Positions 7,578-30,017 of a stretch of 32,000 nucleotides of DNA are shown one piece after another; position 1 is the stretch's first letter; each line of letters starts with the position of its first letter. Location: positions 330,001-362,000 of the forward strand of contig NC_005072.1 in NCBI RefSeq assembly GCF_000011465.1, read 5' to 3'. The notes under the pieces were generated by a model. It searched no databases and was not told the DNA's origin. It saw only the letters and a program-made list of their open reading frames with translations. A program made the position numbers and the translations under genes. This DNA comes from Prochlorococcus marinus subsp. pastoris str. CCMP1986. Its GTDB lineage: Bacteria > Cyanobacteriota > Cyanobacteriia > PCC-6307 > Cyanobiaceae.

Positions 7578-8342
7578 TTGAAAAAAATAATAGATCAAAA
7601 AAGAACAACCCTTCTATTTAATATTGTTGTTCCTGTCTTTAATTCAGAGAAATATATAGAAAGATGCCTTAATTCAATAGTAAAACAATCATATAAAAAA
7701 TTTCAAGTACAAGTGGTTGATGATTGTTCTAGTGATTCTTCTTATGAGATTGCATACTCTATATGCGAACAGAATAAAAATTTCAAACTTTTTAGGAATA
7801 ATAGAAGAATTGGTGCATTAAACAATATATTCAACTTACTTCATACAAAGGTAAAAGAACCTTCAAAAACTATAGATGTGATAATTGATGGAGATGATTA
7901 TTTATATAGCAGTGATGTACTTAATGTTATTGAGGAAAAGTATTTTAAAACAAATTGCTTAATTACTTATGGTTCTCATGTATCATCCAAAGGTGTTCAA
8001 GGGAAAAAATATCCTAGATTCATTAGGGAATTTAATTTATTTAGAAAATACTTTTGGTACGCTTCCCATTTAAAAACATTTAGACATGATTTATGGTTAT
8101 CTATTAATCCTCAAGATTTTCTTAATAAGAATCGAGAATACTTTTCTGTGGCATCGGATTTAGCAATAATGTTCCCAATGCTAGAAATGGCGGGAAATAG
8201 ACAAGAGTTTATAAGTGAAATTCTCTATTGTTACAACGATAAAAATCCCATAAGCGATCATAAGATAAGAAGAAAAGAGCAAATATTATCAGCAAAAGAG
8301 ATAAGGCAAAAAAAAAGATATAATAGGAGAATTTTTAATTAG
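7578..8342 (+). CDS. glycosyltransferase family 2
   Basis: FNIVVPVFNSEKYIERCLNSIVKQSYKKFQVQVVDDCSSDSS and IIDGDD (DxD) are the GT2 N-terminal signature. Divergent from the GT11 gene. TTG start. Confidence 0.75.
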   Translation: MKKIIDQKRTTLLFNIVVPVFNSEKYIERCLNSIVKQSYKKFQVQVVDDCSSDSSYEIAYSICEQNKNFKLFRNNRRIGALNNIFNLLHTKVKEPSKTIDVIIDGDDYLYSSDVLNVIEEKYFKTNCLITYGSHVSSKGVQGKKYPRFIREFNLFRKYFWYASHLKTFRHDLWLSINPQDFLNKNREYFSVASDLAIMFPMLEMAGNRQEFISEILYCYNDKNPISDHKIRRKEQILSAKEIRQKKRYNRRIFN

Positions 8343-9592: not shown

Positions 9593-9781
9593 ATGCTTAC
9601 AACAAAAATTACTTATGCCCTATCAGATTGGATTAGAGAATGGCGAAAATGTAGAAAAGAAAATCCATCTCTTGATGATTGTATAAAGTTTACAGAATGG
9701 AAAATAGAAAATTATGAATTAACAGATAGTGATCGAATGATAATTGAGAGTATTTTACTTTATGAAACTGAAGAAACTTAA
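9593..9781 (+). CDS. small conserved protein, paralog of 29300..29485
   Basis: The 62-aa and 61-aa proteins align over their full length (WIREWRKCRKENPSLDDCIKFTEWK...ELTDSD versus WIQNWKKTYKENPKLNECITWFEWK...ELTSSD). Confidence 0.55.
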   Translation: MLTTKITYALSDWIREWRKCRKENPSLDDCIKFTEWKIENYELTDSDRMIIESILLYETEET

Positions 9782-9899
9782 AACTTTTATCAATCTCATT
9801 TTTCATAAAATTTTTATTATTAAAAGTATCTTAAAACTTTCTAAATATTTTATAAAAAATTAAGCATTTTAATTCTCGTATGTATCCATAAAAAAGTAA

Positions 9900-10000
9900 A
9901 TCGGCATATTTACCGATTTACTAAAAATCTAAAAAGTATTAATTTATAAATGTTGAGTTAGGAGGCAATCTAAATGATTGATAGTCCGCCTGAAATTTAG
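9900..10000 (+). repeat. repeat unit copy 1: ATCGG/CCGAT hairpin, about 55-nt spacer, GGAGG, mini-ORF MIDSPPEI
   Basis: Hairpin 9900-9917, GGAGG 9961-9965, ATGATTGATAGTCCGCCTGAAATTTAG 9974-10000. A homologous unit with the same spacing (76 versus 75 nt) lies on the minus strand at 28692-28806. Confidence 0.5.
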
Positions 10001-10249
10001 CAAATTTACAAATATAGGAAGCGTATTCCTGACAATGGGATTTCTCGAAAAGTAAAGTTCAATCAATTAGTCTGATAAGACTTCGCTCTATAATTACCAG
10101 CGACAAAAGGGACTAAACTTAGCGACAAGAATCCCCTAACCCACGTATTTAAAGCTTATGTGTAAATAAACTTTATATATGTATTATAAATCCTGAAAGT
10201 GGGAAATAAAAAATTTAAAAGAGGACTGTTATTTCAGGCCTCTTTTTTT
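10001..10249 (+). ncRNA. candidate structured RNA / long 3' segment ending at a terminator
   Basis: This non-coding stretch is visibly richer in G/C than its flanks. Local hairpins: AGGAA/TTCCT, AGTCT/AGACT, TCGCT/AGCGA. A long-range GGGATT (10046-10051) pairs with AATCCC (10129-10134). It ends at the 10219-10249 terminator. No sustained ORF on either strand. Confidence 0.3.
10219..10249 (+). terminator. Rho-independent terminator
   Basis: GAGGACT...AGGCCTC stem followed by a T7 run. It lies inside the GTG-extended pip ORF but upstream of the ATG at 10325. Confidence 0.55.
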
Positions 10250-10324
10250 ACTGATTTATATAATTTTAAATGTTTATTATTAGTTAATATTAATTTTCAA
10301 TTTGAAATAAATTATATTTGTAAA

Positions 10325-11272
10325 ATGAAAGAAAATTTATTCCCATCCATCGAACCAAGAGAAAAGGGTTTTTTACAAGTAAGTAAGATTCATTCTATTT
10401 ATTGGGAAAGATCTGGAAATCCAAAAGGTAAAAAGATATTAGTAATTCATGGTGGCCCTGGAGGAGGAAGTCAGCCAAGATATAGGCGATATTTTAATCC
10501 TGAAAAATTTGATATTGTTCAATTTGATCAAAGAGGCTGCGGTTATTCAAGACCTTTTTCAGAATTAAGAGAAAATACAACAGGCGACTTAGTAAATGAT
10601 ATTGAAAAATTAAGAGTAAATTTGAAAATAGATTATTGGCATTTGTTTGGGGGTTCATGGGGTTCTACTCTAGCTTTAATTTATGCAATTAAAAATCCAT
10701 CAAGAGTCTTAAGTATGACCTTAAGAGGAATATTTTTATGTAGAAAATTTGAACTCTTATGGTTTTATCAATATGGCGCAAGTGAGATATTTCCTGAAGA
10801 GTTTGAAAAATATATTGCAGTAATTCCTAAGGATGAAAGGGTTGACTTGATAGTTTCTTTTTACAAATATCTAACCTCCCCAGATATTGAACTTAGATCA
10901 AAAGCTGCTGCTGCCTGGACAAATTGGGAACTTTCCACAAGCCATCTTATAAAAAGAGATATTGATGTTGGTAAAAGTAAAATTAATTCCTTTTCAGATG
11001 CTTTTGCAAGAATAGAGTGTCATTATTTTATAAATAAGATCTTCCTAGAAGAAAATTTTATTTTGAAAAATGCAAAGATTATAGAATCCATACCAACTAA
11101 AATAATTCAGGGTAGATATGACGTAGTTTGTCCTGTAAGGAGTGCTTGGGACCTTAGTAGAAAATTAATAAATTCAGAGTTAATAATCGTAGATGATGCT
11201 GGTCATTCAATGAGCGAAAAAGGCATCACATTAAAATTATTAGATTCAGTTGAAAGATTAGAAAGTTTTTAG
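10325..11272 (+). CDS. pip: proline iminopeptidase (prolyl aminopeptidase, S33 alpha/beta hydrolase)
   Basis: HGGPGGG, FDQRGCGYS and GGSWGSTLAL (nucleophile elbow GxSxG) are classic Pip motifs. The start is set at MKENLFPSIEP because the upstream GTG extension contains a terminator. Confidence 0.85.
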   Translation: MKENLFPSIEPREKGFLQVSKIHSIYWERSGNPKGKKILVIHGGPGGGSQPRYRRYFNPEKFDIVQFDQRGCGYSRPFSELRENTTGDLVNDIEKLRVNLKIDYWHLFGGSWGSTLALIYAIKNPSRVLSMTLRGIFLCRKFELLWFYQYGASEIFPEEFEKYIAVIPKDERVDLIVSFYKYLTSPDIELRSKAAAAWTNWELSTSHLIKRDIDVGKSKINSFSDAFARIECHYFINKIFLEENFILKNAKIIESIPTKIIQGRYDVVCPVRSAWDLSRKLINSELIIVDDAGHSMSEKGITLKLLDSVERLESF

Positions 11273-16644: not shown

Positions 16645-16729
16645 CAAGTAATGTAATAATATCAGAAACTCCTCACACACTAATTTCTGATAATCAGGCA
16701 CCCTTATCTCTAAATTAGGGTGTTTTTTA
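16645..16729 (+). ncRNA. yfr1-like: Yfr1-like sRNA (carries ACUCCUCACAC). 5' end uncertain
   Basis: ACTCCTCACAC at 16668-16678 is identical to the ultraconserved Yfr1 motif as I recall it. It can sit in the loop of ATCAGAAA/TTTCTGAT (16661-16691). Terminator CACCCT...AGGGTG plus T6 at 16699-16728. Confidence 0.6.
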
Positions 16730-16759
16730 TTGACATAAAAACATAAAGTCATAACTGGC

Positions 16760-16921
16760 ACATGTGACAATTAAATTACTTTTCTCATCCCCTTCCGGTT
16801 TAGGAGAATGTATGGCATATTAAAAAGGTGTGTAGGAGAGGTTTTACTGAAACAGTGGAAACAAGGAAACACTTGATTTAGTTAAACCAAGGAAAGACCT
16901 CTATTAGGGGTCTTTTTTTTT
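16760..16921 (+). ncRNA. Yfr2-family-like sRNA candidate. 5' end uncertain
   Basis: GGTGTGTAGGAGAGG (16827-16841) is near-complementary to the CTCCTCACACAC of the neighbour. Repeated GGAAACA units lie at 16857-16872. A strong terminator AGACCTC/GGGGTCT plus T9 lies at 16895-16921. TTGACA at 16730-16735 is a possible -35. Confidence 0.45.
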
Positions 16922-17624: not shown

Positions 17625-17640
17625 ATTGACAGTCGATCTA
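17625..17640 (+). repeat. 16-nt element ATTGACAGTCGATCTA, copy A
   Basis: Exact match to the reverse complement of four copies at 28196, 28575, 29640 and 30002. Starts 8 nt after the stop codon of the DUF3303-like gene. Confidence 0.9.
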
Positions 17641-20425: not shown

Positions 20426-20524
20426 TGATGCAGCTCCTGAACTTGCTCAAGTCCCCGTCCTTTGGCTTGAGTCGTACTGCGGTCTATCTAGTGGTAGATC
20501 GGACGATTTGGTAGCTGTAGCTAC
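20426..20524. other. G/C-rich structured island (three consecutive hairpins). Candidate ncRNA or foreign DNA remnant
   Basis: Hairpins CTCAAG/CTTGAG (20446-20471), GGTCTATCTA-GTGG-TAGATcGGAC (20481-20504) and GTAGCT/AGCTAC (20511-20524). The only ORF (29 aa) uses G/C-rich codons atypical of this window. Confidence 0.3.
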
Positions 20525-28195: not shown

Positions 28196-28211
28196 TAGAT
28201 CGACTGTCAAT
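28196..28211 (-). repeat. 16-nt element ATTGACAGTCGATCTA, copy B
   Basis: Exact copy, 6 nt after the stop of 28218..28490. Followed on the minus strand by hairpin AAGGAGC/GCTCCTT, TTTCT, then the ATG at 28167. Confidence 0.9.
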
Positions 28212-28217
28212 CACTTT

Positions 28218-28490
28218 CTATGAGTAGACTTTGGCAACTAATGGACCAGCTTCCTCATCAGTAAATACAGGTGTGGTTTCCCAATTTAGAAATTCACCCC
28301 ATTCAGCGGCATGTTGATATATTGCTTTTGGATCATCAGTCTTTAAAACTATCCAACCCTCTAAAGAACCAGGTGCGTGATATCTTCCAATCATCTCAAC
28401 TCCAGGATAATCTCCCCCACCACCAAGAAATTTTTCTGCACCTTTTTGATGATATCCGGCCTTAAATGACCAATGCTGAACATAAAGCAT
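28218..28490 (-). CDS. DUF3303 family protein (paralog 3 of 4; best match to the family pattern)
   Basis: MLYVQHWSFKAGYHQKGAEKFLGGGGDYPGVEMIGRYHAPGSLEGWIVLKTDDPKAIYQHAAEWGEFLNWETTPVFTDEEAG closely follows the remembered DUF3303 consensus. Confidence 0.75.
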   Translation of the reverse strand: MLYVQHWSFKAGYHQKGAEKFLGGGGDYPGVEMIGRYHAPGSLEGWIVLKTDDPKAIYQHAAEWGEFLNWETTPVFTDEEAGPLVAKVYS

Positions 28491-28574: not shown

Positions 28575-28590
28575 TAGATCGACTGTCAAT
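28575..28590 (-). repeat. 16-nt element ATTGACAGTCGATCTA, copy C
   Basis: Exact copy located between the minus-strand terminator (28605-28649) and the DUF3303 gene start (28490). Confidence 0.9.
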
Positions 28591-28604
28591 GATAAAAGTT
28601 TGTA

Positions 28605-28649
28605 TCAAAAAAGAGGTTGAACTCAGCCTTTAAATGAAAACAACCTCTT
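28605..28649 (-). terminator. Rho-independent terminator of the mini-ORF operon
   Basis: AAGAGGTTG (28611-28619) pairs with CAACCTCTT (28641-28649). On the minus strand it is followed by a U6-type run. Confidence 0.6.
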
Positions 28650-28691
28650 TAGGAATACTTAGCTTATTTTTATTTAATAGGATTTGGCTGT

Positions 28692-28806
28692 TTAAACCAA
28701 TCTCATTAAATTCTCTGGTGGACTATCAATCATTTCTGATCCCTCCATTTGATTAACTAGAAATTACTATGGATAATATTTTCTGTATATCGGTATTAAT
28801 GCCGAT
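28692..28806 (-). repeat. repeat unit copy 2: ATCGG/CCGAT hairpin, spacer, GGAGGG, mini-ORF MIDSPPENLMRLV
   Basis: Hairpin 28789-28806, GGAGGG (reverse complement of 28741-28746), mini-ORF 28692..28733 containing ATTGATAGTC. Homologous to 9900-10000. Confidence 0.5.
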
Positions 28807-28942
28807 TTTTAATATAGAAAGCCAATACTAATAAAACTACAGTAAAACTTAAAACAATAATCCCAATGTCTGGTTGCTTTGCATTTGTGAAATAAGTAGG
28901 ATTTTCTACTGGAATTTCAATTATTTCTCCTTCTTCAATCAT
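28796..28942 (-). CDS. mini-ORF f (48 aa, C-terminal TM)
   Basis: Hand translation: MIEEGEIIEIPVENPTYFTNAKQPDIGIIVLSFTVVLLVLAFYIKNRH. Its ATG overlaps the stop of ORF e (TAATG). Confidence 0.5.
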   Translation of the reverse strand: MIEEGEIIEIPVENPTYFTNAKQPDIGIIVLSFTVVLLVLAFYIKNRH

Positions 28943-29055
28943 TACTTATATGTATTGAGTAAAAATATATAAAATCCCAACAATACTAATGTTGCTGTAC
29001 CTACACCAATAACTGTAGCTGGTTGATTATTCCAAAGTTGATTAAAAAATTCCAT
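28942..29055 (-). CDS. mini-ORF e (37 aa, TM)
   Basis: Hand translation: MEFFNQLWNNQPATVIGVGTATLVLLGFYIFLLNTYK. Its start abuts the stop of ORF d with a 0-nt gap. Confidence 0.5.
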   Translation of the reverse strand: MEFFNQLWNNQPATVIGVGTATLVLLGFYIFLLNTYK

Positions 29056-29211
29056 TTATTTTAATTTTCTTGTTCCACCATAAGAATATTGGCTTTCTTT
29101 TGAAACAATATGCCAACACTTTTTACAGCAAAAAATCCACCTTTTATAATTTATAGATTTTACTCTGTAATGGATCACATCTTCCTTATTGCATAAATCA
29201 CACTTTTTCAT
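29056..29211 (-). CDS. mini-ORF d (51 aa, 4-5 Cys zinc-ribbon-like)
   Basis: Hand translation: MKKCDLCNKEDVIHYRVKSINYKRWIFCCKKCWHIVSKESQYSYGGTRKLK (CxxC...CCxxC). ATGA overlap with ORF c. Confidence 0.5.
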   Translation of the reverse strand: MKKCDLCNKEDVIHYRVKSINYKRWIFCCKKCWHIVSKESQYSYGGTRKLK

Positions 29212-29297
29212 TTTTTTATCATTTTAAAAGTTAAATACGCAAAGCCACCAAGTAATAACAGACTAATAACTCCATAAGTAATTGCTATTCCATACAT
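29208..29297 (-). CDS. mini-ORF c (29 aa, TM)
   Basis: Hand translation: MYGIAITYGVISLLLLGGFAYLTFKMIKK. It starts 2 nt after the stop of 29300..29485. Confidence 0.45.
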   Translation of the reverse strand: MYGIAITYGVISLLLLGGFAYLTFKMIKK

Positions 29298-29299
29298 AA

Positions 29300-29485
29300 T
29301 TATTCTTCCGAGTTATATCTCAAAATAGTTGCAATTGAACTCTTGTCACTTGAGGTAAGTTCTCTATCTTGATATTTCCATTCAAACCATGTAATACATT
29401 CATTTAACTTTGGATTTTCCTTATAAGTTTTTTTCCAGTTTTGTATCCAATTGGCTAATGCACTTGCTTCATCTGTATTTAACAT
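29300..29485 (-). CDS. small conserved protein b (61 aa), paralog of 9593..9781
   Basis: Track ORF. Full-length similarity to the 62-aa protein at 9593..9781. Confidence 0.6.
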   Translation of the reverse strand: MLNTDEASALANWIQNWKKTYKENPKLNECITWFEWKYQDRELTSSDKSSIATILRYNSEE

Positions 29486-29639: not shown

Positions 29640-29655
29640 TAGATCGACTGTCAAT
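29640..29655 (-). repeat. 16-nt element ATTGACAGTCGATCTA, copy D
   Basis: Exact copy, 34 nt after the stop of 29690..29971. Followed by GAAGG...CCTTT plus a T-run, then the ATG at 29610. Confidence 0.9.
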
Positions 29656-29689: not shown

Positions 29690-29971
29690 TTAACGATATA
29701 GAGCTACTGTTTCATCTAAATCTGCGCAAGGTTCAATAGTAATCTCCATTAATTCTCTCCAAGGTCGCCATTGACGCCAAATAGTTTCTAGAGAATCCGT
29801 ATTTACCACAGAGTAACCGTTTCCATGTTGAGGTAAGAAAATCCAAGATTTAACGTTATATCCCTCTGGTCTATTTTGTGGACCTCCTTTGTCGTACCAT
29901 TCAGTTAGCATTTTCGCCCCTTTCTCTTGGGCGTTTGCGTCAGAAAATTTATAAGAAATTAGAAAAAGCAT
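29690..29971 (-). CDS. DUF3303-like protein (paralog 4 of 4)
   Basis: MLFLISYKFSDANAQEKGAKMLTEWYDKGGPQNRPEGYNVKSWIFLPQHGNGYSVVNTDSLETIWRQWRPW aligns with the other three paralogs. Confidence 0.6.
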   Translation of the reverse strand: MLFLISYKFSDANAQEKGAKMLTEWYDKGGPQNRPEGYNVKSWIFLPQHGNGYSVVNTDSLETIWRQWRPWRELMEITIEPCADLDETVALYR

Positions 29972-30001: not shown

Positions 30002-30017
30002 TAGATCGACTGTCAAT
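30002..30017 (-). repeat. 16-nt element ATTGACAGTCGATCTA, copy E
   Basis: Exact copy, 1 nt after the stop of 30019..30486 and 30 nt before the ATG at 29971. Confidence 0.9.

Follow-up and report, generated by a model that had tools for sequence, protein, structure and literature searches.

The stretch of DNA analysed here (the window) comprises 32,000 nucleotides (nt) of the Prochlorococcus marinus MED4 genome, positions 330001–362000 within genomic island 1, the offset of 330000 being fixed by Yfr10 and Yfr11. The subject of the analysis is a unit of approximately 100 nt which occurs in this window at two loci (A and B) in opposite orientation, and which in both cases is the promoter and 5' end of a small RNA (sRNA), Yfr8 at locus A and Yfr11 at locus B. 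Table 1 of PMC2518516 (Steglich, 2008), in which 5' ends and lengths derive from 5' rapid amplification of cDNA ends (RACE) and Northern blot, places MED4 Yfr8 at 339952..340241, Yfr9 at complement 339887..340176, Yfr10 at 346661..346738 and Yfr11 at complement 358606..358754, and the addition of 330000 to the window coordinates gives these published positions for all four RNAs. The Yfr8/Yfr9 pair is described there as sitting between PMED4_03781 and PMM0356, and this published setting was matched in the window, with the flanking 62-amino-acid (aa) open reading frame (ORF) and an iminopeptidase-like gene both present.

Five known RNAs were identified by an Rfam scan of the window (Yfr8/9, Yfr11, Yfr10, Cyano-1/Yfr2 and the glutamine-II riboswitch). 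The Yfr8/9 family RF02360 was matched over its entire model (1–226 of 226) at 9952–10177 on the minus strand with 263.3 bits (E = 3e-64; gathering score 40), and RF02363, the Yfr11 family which includes Yfr16, was likewise matched in full (1–144 of 144) at 28606–28754 on the minus strand with 151.4 bits (gathering score 44). By the published coordinates, Yfr8 occupies 9952..10241 on the plus strand, with a plus-strand consensus fold of −53 kcal/mol and a terminator hairpin and U-run at 10220–10249 (+). Its antisense RNA Yfr9 occupies 9887..10176 on the minus strand, which is the orientation of the Rfam match, and is complementary to the entire 5' module of Yfr8 as well as to the Yfr8 promoter. 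Yfr11 lies at 28606..28754 on the minus strand, in agreement with its published position, and ends in a terminator at ~28650–28607. These RNAs are themselves already known, having been published in 2008 and entered in Rfam, where the Yfr8 and Yfr11 families have no common clan.

The front ends of the two genes are nonetheless homologous, as the initial annotation had proposed in describing the loci as a diverged segmental duplication. The ~100-nt blocks are identical at 69 of 102 positions and give a local alignment score of 39 (shuffles 11.2 ± 1.9, maximum 20), and the proteins encoded beside them form a pair with a BLASTP E-value of 1e-20. The start of Yfr8 at 9952 aligns with that of Yfr11 at 28754, the −10 box and an upstream element stand at identical distances from both published 5' ends, and the distance from the start of the upstream motif to the ATG is 76 nt in locus A and 75 nt in locus B. 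GGAGG is found at 9961–9965 (+) and 28742–28746 (−), in each copy 8 nt before ATGATTGATAGTCCnCCnGA, the start of an ORF reading MIDSPPE, just as had been noted. That strong Shine-Dalgarno (SD) sequences are rare elsewhere in the window held in one sense only: GGAGG itself occurs 28 times where 21.5 are expected, and over both strands together the two units are the only sites with GGAGG-N(4–10)-ATG. The alignment indicates that both units descend from a common ancestor and are part of a wider family, and a duplication of gene plus sRNA in MED4 is plausible.

With regard to the promoters, the −10 box is TAATTT in both loci (9940..9945 on the plus strand for Yfr8; 28761..28766 on the minus strand for Yfr11), at −12..−7 from the published 5' ends. 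The promoter-upstream element of Yfr8 (AAATCGGCATATTTACCGATTTAC, 9898..9921, +) includes a −35-like TTTACT, and that of Yfr11 (AAATCGGCATTAATACCGATATAC, 28785..28808, −) overlaps the stop codon of a 48-aa ORF. Both elements lie at −54..−31, are identical at 20 of 24 positions and contain the block AAATCGGCAT-N3-TACCGAT-N-TAC; AAATCRGCAT-N3-TAC occurs twice in the window against an expectation of 0.10. The motif is conserved before all unit-bearing RNAs in other genomes, and the Yfr11-type consensus AAATCAGCAT-N3-TAC-N2-ATATACA retrieved 52 real metagenome contigs. One promoter type drives both genes, composed of TAATTT at −10, a weak −35 and the element AAATCRGCAT-N3-TAC-N2-AT-N-TAC at −54..−31, the last being a candidate transcription-factor site which would co-regulate Yfr8, Yfr11/16 and other island RNAs.

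The upstream element coincides with ATCGG/CCGAT inverted repeats at 9900–9917 and 28789–28806, which fold at −12.7 and −5.3 kcal/mol, respectively. These had been annotated as a hairpin shared downstream of the protein genes and, while they are present at both places, they are not a conserved hairpin of a transcript, since they lie at −54..−31 and in 41 of 50 unique Yfr11-type variants fold more weakly than −3 kcal/mol (median −0.9). A hairpin forming part of the sRNA was ruled out, since the repeats stand upstream of both transcription starts and cannot fold in most Yfr11-type relatives; lying upstream of both 5' ends, they are promoter DNA. As the Yfr11-type variants still keep AAATCAGCAT-N3-TAC-N2-ATATAC without folding, the family has in common a DNA motif with constant spacing to the start, not a hairpin. 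All 21 unique Yfr8-type variants fold (median −6.6 kcal/mol), and the commonest arm combination among them (11/21) is mismatched, with ATCAG opposite CGGAT.

At locus A the palindrome also fits a terminator for Yfr9. On the minus strand a stem of 12 base pairs (bp; 9922–9895) is followed by UUUUU at 9894–9890 (terminator scan 1 site, 0.1 expected), the hairpin has −14.8 kcal/mol (z = −5.9), and the published Yfr9 3' end at 339887 (PMC2518516) corresponds to window position 9887, where stem and U-run end. Because of this agreement the palindrome is read as the Yfr9 intrinsic terminator overlapping the upstream promoter of Yfr8, and the strength of the palindrome in the Yfr8 locus would be explained by this second use of the same sequence on the other strand. 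On the plus strand of locus A no U-run follows, so that the palindrome does not qualify as an intrinsic terminator there, and a same-strand terminator of the upstream gene was ruled out on the same ground. The available portions of PMC2518516 contain no mention of a Yfr8 promoter element doubling as the Yfr9 terminator. This is a compact use of the genome, one 28-bp palindrome being both upstream promoter element for Yfr8 and terminator for its antisense RNA.

Three further observations were made on the palindrome. The arm pair with G...C, ATCGG/CCGAT, was seen in MED4-like sequences only, where it is found in both promoters, and most of the others (compared across L006–L124) have ATCAG with CGGAT, CGCAT or CTGAT; this lineage-specific parallel state of two paralogous promoters suggests gene conversion, or else that the promoters co-evolved with a factor which binds them. 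In locus B the plus strand at 28789–28811 reads AUCGGUAUUAAUGCCGAU followed by UUUUU (−10.2 kcal/mol, z = −3.9), a terminator-like site which may, by analogy with Yfr9, end an unannotated antisense RNA opposite Yfr11. In L015 (~7747–7776) the 8-nt loop of the palindrome is inverted, being TAAATATG for CATATTTA, with the arms intact and a perfect 12-bp stem of −15.3 kcal/mol.

The second part of the shared unit is an RNA module which starts 8–9 nt after the 5' end and consists of GGAGG, 8 nt and AUG AUU GAU AGU CCN CCN GAR, with an invariant stretch GAUAGUCCNCC. In Yfr8 the module spans 9961..10000 (+), the GGAGG being followed by a hairpin CAAUC/GAUUG at 9966–9980 and by a mini-ORF running from ATG to TAG at 9974–10000 (MIDSPPEI*). 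In Yfr11 it spans 28692..28746 (−), with GGAGG at 28746–28742, a hairpin GAUCA/UGAUU and a mini-ORF at 28733–28692 (MIDSPPENLMRLV*). The spacing between GGAGG and AUG is 8 nt in MED4 and 6–9 nt in relatives.

Further copies were sought in related genomes with the 21-nt unit pattern, using one genome per species, and were found in abundance (at least 120 loci; counts of genome loci given here and below refer to the matches listed). Prochlorococcus accounted for 117 of the 120 matches, the other three being chance matches, and nhmmer over the listed loci added one copy lacking the exact pattern (L058, with Asp changed to Glu). Because the genome pattern allowed variation at wobble positions only and is biased accordingly, an unbiased set was obtained from a metagenome scan anchored on the promoter motif alone, in which 52 of 55 contigs were real promoter copies. 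The unit lies ~57 nt downstream of the motif in most real contigs with enough downstream sequence, and nine contigs carry other RNAs, without the MIDSPPE unit, behind the same promoter. A loose 9-mer scan for extra copies of the promoter motif was too unspecific to inform. In total, over 150 loci of Prochlorococcus have GGAGG-N8-AUG with the seven codons, and the RNAs concerned belong to three classes or more; the unit-bearing relatives score as RF02363 Yfr11, except for the L047/L063 class, which matches no Rfam family. Cyanophages gave no copies: two pattern scans of IMG/VR returned chance matches only, on contigs of 25–46% G+C without the unit, and neither tblastn of the 62-aa protein nor blastn of locus A found a match in 50,697 phage records, so that a cyanophage origin was rejected.

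Among the RNAs without the unit, those of L125, L128, L134, L139, L141, L165 and L168 have the same promoter motif and −10 box followed by tandem AACGTAGATCAATGATTTAGGTGCGTT repeats, and in L142 and L167 promoter and −10 box are followed by a short RNA CTTGATCTATACAGATCTAAGCAAAAC and a terminator; no Rfam family matches these RNAs. Two tandem Yfr11-type genes 405 nt apart were seen in L058 (750–898 and 1155–1304), both with a premature stop (MIESPPENL* and MIDSPPENL*), the former carrying the change of Asp to Glu. A second conserved single-stranded motif, AUAAC/GCUAAGU, is found just before the terminator (window ~28662–28674) and is present in many Yfr11-type RNAs of otherwise different length classes (e.g., L005, L016, L029, L101, L143, L150); it may be a seed through which these RNAs pair with their targets.

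Every Yfr8-type sequence has the AUG, as do 41 of the 42 unique ORF sequences of the Yfr11 type. All 87 pattern-selected Yfr8-type copies read MIDSPPEI*; as the search pattern fixed codons 1–6, the independent evidence in these copies comes from codons 7 and 8 and the stop only. The ORF has eight codons in Yfr8 and mostly 13 in the Yfr11 type (range 9–24), where the peptides follow MIDSPPE[KN][FL][IVT][RK]L[VAI]. Common variants in the 42 unique Yfr11-type ORFs are confined to third codon positions (sites 6, 15, 24, 27 and 30), and when the sequences are read in the AUG frame their amino-acid divergence is half of what the two alternative frames give. In the promoter-anchored set a frame-contrast test gave D = +9.4 (null standard deviation 4.1; one-sided p = 0.011) and p = 0.013 with all sequences, the sample being small, and on the promoter as a control it gave p = 0.26–0.79. 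Insertions and deletions (indels) within the ORF are of 3 nt and 6 nt, with one of 1 nt near the end, two of the three being in frame. In the L047/L063 class SD, AUG and the MIDSPPE codons are kept, the adjacent hairpin is lost and there is no significant structure (z = +0.9).

These comparisons show strong purifying selection on the 5' module with a frame-specific pattern, and translation of the mini-ORF is judged to be marginally probable. The initial annotation had asked whether substitutions are synonymous, for a peptide, or compensatory, for an RNA; the AUG-frame-specific pattern (p = 0.011) favours the first, and RNA pairing explains part of the variation. The three levels put forward for the conservation (peptide, RNA and DNA) in fact all proved relevant. 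Under the mechanism proposed here, the SD-led module GGAGG, 6–9 nt, AUG AUY GAY AGU CCN CCN GAR would load ribosomes and be translated, and Yfr8 and Yfr11 would then be dual-function or ribosome-protected sRNAs whose class-specific downstream parts carry the riboregulation. Translation could act through a very short peptide, through Pro-Pro stalling or through protection of the 5' end. Published half-lives are >20 min for Yfr16, 19.7 min for Yfr8 and 4.8 min for Yfr11, with a median of 3.3 min for non-coding and antisense RNAs (PMC2897979); these rates are compatible with 5' protection and prove nothing.

A number of observations weigh against translation. In an alternative reading the 5' module would be untranslated, GGAGG pairing with CCNCC, the AUG lying in a small hairpin and the look of an ORF being incidental. 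The invariant GAUAGUCC would then be a structural element, a seed for pairing with mRNA or a protein-binding site. Such an RNA-only explanation is judged somewhat less likely than not. PMC2518516 describes these RNAs as non-coding with significant RNAz support, and in the RNAalifold structure GG.GG of the SD is joined to the CC.CC formed by the two Pro codons, with an unpaired A opposite the first wobble base. The hairpin after the SD has 5 bp and holds the UG of the AUG (90% of cells paired), and the wobble base of AUY forms its closing pair (GC 13, GU 13, AU 7), so that RNA pairing accounts for part of the variation, at the first CCN wobble and the AUY wobble. A stem-loop of −14 kcal/mol encloses the SD and AUG of Yfr8 (z = −2.8 for the 5' domain), and GG.GG is paired to CC.CC in this fold too. 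The length of the ORF is not conserved (8–24 codons), only seven codons being common to Yfr8 and Yfr11. One identical variant from three metagenomes (L132, L144, L178) reads GGAAA for GGAGG and AUU for AUG, with the rest of the unit and the terminator intact; its −10 box is damaged as well, and from its sequence it may be a decaying copy or young pseudogene, or an RNA-only derivative. To these points must be added that an initial column-shuffle test (p = 0.018 in the AUG frame, 0.83 and 0.76 in the others) was anti-conservative, giving 0.05–0.29 on the promoter control, and because of this bias was replaced by the frame-contrast statistic.

Pairing, however, accounts for only some of what is seen. 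Covariation in the helix is weak, its score having been reached by 36 of 500 shuffles, and the GG/CC pairs show no variation at all. The 5' region of Yfr11 is not significantly structured (z = −0.15), and the L047 class has the unit without the hairpin. Moreover, the 3-nt period of variability at sites 24, 27 and 30, the reduced amino-acid divergence in the AUG frame only and the in-frame indels of 3 and 6 nt are left unexplained by an untranslated module. Two particular forms of pairing were considered and rejected: retention of GGAGG as a closing helix with the distal CUCC of the Rfam Yfr11 model, as several subtypes have no such partner, and pairing of the leader with codons 8–10, which might have produced the 3-nt period of the variation, as no consensus pairing was found.

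If the mini-ORF is translated, it may be asked whether it serves as an arrest or sensor element. It is conceivable, although unlikely, that pausing at Pro-Pro-Glu in MIDSPPE reports the status of elongation factor P (EF-P) or prolyl-tRNA and decides the stability or termination of the island sRNAs, and an equally speculative extension would span Yfr8, Yfr11, Yfr16 and further classes under one promoter, with Yfr8 tied to the gene pip (PMM0356) downstream of it. Were this so, several RNAs which count as textbook examples of non-coding RNA in the most abundant phototroph would become translation-coupled regulators. Classical leader-peptide attenuation, in which Pro-Pro pausing senses prolyl-tRNA or EF-P and sets read-through of a terminator into the downstream gene (pip for Yfr8), appears very unlikely. 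The SD-led short ORF with its two Pro codons, the position of pip, which in 84 of 86 Yfr8-type loci follows the unit at ~340 nt on the same strand, and the strong Yfr8 terminator directly before it would all suit this reading. Against it, a conserved TAATAT ~35 nt before the pip ATG suggests that pip has its own promoter, and the Yfr11-type RNAs carry the same leader with no conserved gene downstream. There is likewise no alternative terminator/antiterminator pairing in the consensus folds, and ~230 nt of structured RNA separate the ORF from the terminator.

The unit contains the sequence ATTGAYAGTC, which had been taken as a core common to the unit and to a 16-mer, ATTGACAGTCGATCTA, found at 17625–17640 (+) and at 28196–28211, 28581–28596, 29640–29655 and 30002–30017 (−). 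Its seven occurrences in the window (0.19 expected) were confirmed, but its unity with the 16-mer was not, since the latter behaves as a separate element before small island ORFs. The 16-mer is also present in L023, L041, L051, L064, L149, L156 and L159, and ~1 Mb of loci contains 37 copies of its 12-nt core ATTGACAGTCGA. A perfect TTGACA forms part of the 16-mer, which begins 40–49 nt before the start of the next ORF (at least 35 aa) in 13 of 24 cases and precedes both DUF3303 paralogues (28218–28490 and 29690–29971). Position and TTGACA together suggest that it is a promoter-like element in its own right, belonging to small island genes.

It is highly improbable that a single factor recognises both as versions of one site, for all that ATTGAYAGTC is so enriched in the window. 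The 16-mer often follows ATG or TTG, giving (A/T)TGATTGACAGTC, and then matches ATGATTGATAGTC of the unit at 12 of 13 positions; in addition, eight of the 37 copies lie within 400 nt of a unit. Five of these eight neighbour cases, however, represent one orthologous arrangement, and in five orthologous loci the 16-mer stands on the opposite strand just upstream of the Yfr11-type promoter. The contexts also differ, the 16-mer standing with its TTGACA before ORFs and the unit copy inside a transcript at a start codon; the flanks beyond 10–13 nt are unrelated, and the T/C difference is fixed between the classes, with C in the unit only in L047 and L063. A common origin or a common binding factor for unit and 16-mer is possible. 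Finally, a functionless relic of a segmental duplication, to which the diverged flanks of the MED4 loci (49% protein identity) and the four ORFs inserted in one copy might point, is already refuted by the conservation data, over 150 copies from different genomes having a nearly invariant 21-nt core between freely varying flanks, and both RNAs being expressed and experimentally mapped (PMC2518516).

The genes adjoining the two units were also analysed. Paralogue A, a 62-aa hypothetical protein (9593..9781, +) which is presumably PMED4_03781, is syntenic upstream of Yfr8 in high-light-adapted (HL) Prochlorococcus, and paralogue B (29300..29485, −) is a hypothetical protein of 61 aa. The two are identical at 30 of 61 positions (49%), in agreement with their annotation as a pair. 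The family comprises 296 homologue clusters, all unnamed or hypothetical, and has no Pfam domain. Most Yfr8-type loci have an orthologue of paralogue A on the same strand ~170 nt upstream of the unit; in six the distance is ~1.43 kb, and in a few the gene is frameshifted. In the single-cell genomes L028, L074 and L107 the 62-aa gene appears to be split by frameshifts, for which sequencing error or pseudogenisation may be the explanation. For paralogue B the only close homologue is that of L077, at 97% and on the opposite strand, with a partial one in L146. Among non-MED4 Yfr11-type units with at least 1.1 kb upstream, a paralogue is nearby in one of 47, on the other strand, so that the association of paralogue and sRNA into a module stands within MED4 and among Yfr8 orthologues but not for Yfr11 elsewhere.

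Four back-to-back mini-ORFs of 29, 51, 37 and 48 aa (28796..29297, −) were found between paralogue B and the Yfr11 promoter, as had been annotated. Three are hydrophobic and one has CxxC...CxxC; they have few homologues in other loci, and Pfam gave no match for the 51-aa and 48-aa products, the two that were searched. Just downstream of Yfr8 is the proline iminopeptidase-like gene pip (10325..11272, +), before which the −10-like TAATAT is conserved in both HLI-type and HLII-type sequences (window stretch 10250–10324). The presence of Pro-Pro in a mini-ORF upstream of a proline iminopeptidase gene may be coincidence. Elsewhere in the window, the known elements Yfr10 (16661–16738) and Yfr2 (Cyano-1; 16826–16893) lie on the plus strand and the glutamine-II riboswitch (20446–20508) on the minus strand.

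In relation to earlier work, locus A is the Yfr8/Yfr9 pair of PMC2518516 (RF02360), coordinates, island and flanking genes being in agreement, and what is discussed in that report is a 44-aa ORF in Yfr9 and a possible toxin-antitoxin role, not the mini-ORF of Yfr8. Locus B is Yfr11, and since the unit lies at positions 9–43 of the RF02363 model it is also present in Yfr16; the 2008 report was limited to MED4 and MIT9515 (PMC2518516), and the family now extends over dozens of genomes and metagenome contigs in several length classes. A full-text literature search on Yfr8, Yfr9, Yfr11 and Yfr16, which did not reach subscription papers, returned only PMC2518516 and PMC2897979, neither of which mentions a Yfr8–Yfr11 relationship or the mini-ORF in its accessible portions, and no paper in that search contains the string MIDSPPE. 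The shared promoter motif, the family relationship of Yfr8 and Yfr11 and the coding-like mini-ORF are thus probably unreported. Yfr8 and Yfr11/16 have so far been handled as unrelated families; their promoters and 5' modules are homologous, and at least two further RNA classes from ocean metagenomes stand behind the same promoter. Together these findings are indicative of an sRNA regulon, in an organism whose transcription factors are very few. If the mini-ORF is translated, the non-coding RNAs Yfr8 and Yfr11 would need to be re-annotated as dual-function or ribosome-engaged RNAs.

Among known systems, the promoter element is comparable in position to CGRE1, which is found in promoters of the yfr2 family and is bound by the GntR regulator PMM1637 (Lambrecht, 2018; PMC6191309). 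Both are partly palindromic elements of ~22–24 nt near −55, and both stand upstream of paralogous sRNA genes in HL Prochlorococcus. CGRE1, however, has GTTA...TAAC flanks around a GTG..CAC-like core and the sequence of the present motif differs, so that membership of the CGRE1/PMM1637 regulon was rejected on sequence, the position alone being similar (−54 as compared with −55 to −57 for the 22-nt palindrome). A CGRE1-like palindrome, ACTGGCACATGTGACAAT, was itself seen upstream of Yfr2 at ~16755–16773.

The RNA module resembles cat and erm leaders and the STAB-SD of Bacillus cryIIIA mRNA in its strong SD near the 5' end and its very short ORF, and it has a possible Pro-Pro pause site and above-average half-lives. 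It differs in that a stabilising effect would here be drawn from three half-life values only, and in that no alternative structures were found. The second comparison is with dual-function sRNAs such as SgrS/SgrT and RNAIII/delta-haemolysin, a type of dual function which PMC2518516 cites for Yfr6 and Yfr9. The mini-ORFs described here have 8–13 codons, of which seven are conserved, and are shorter than the known functional peptides encoded by sRNAs. What Yfr8 and Yfr11 have in common with these RNAs is a terminated small transcript with conserved structured parts and a short ORF that is led by an SD and appears to be constrained as coding sequence.

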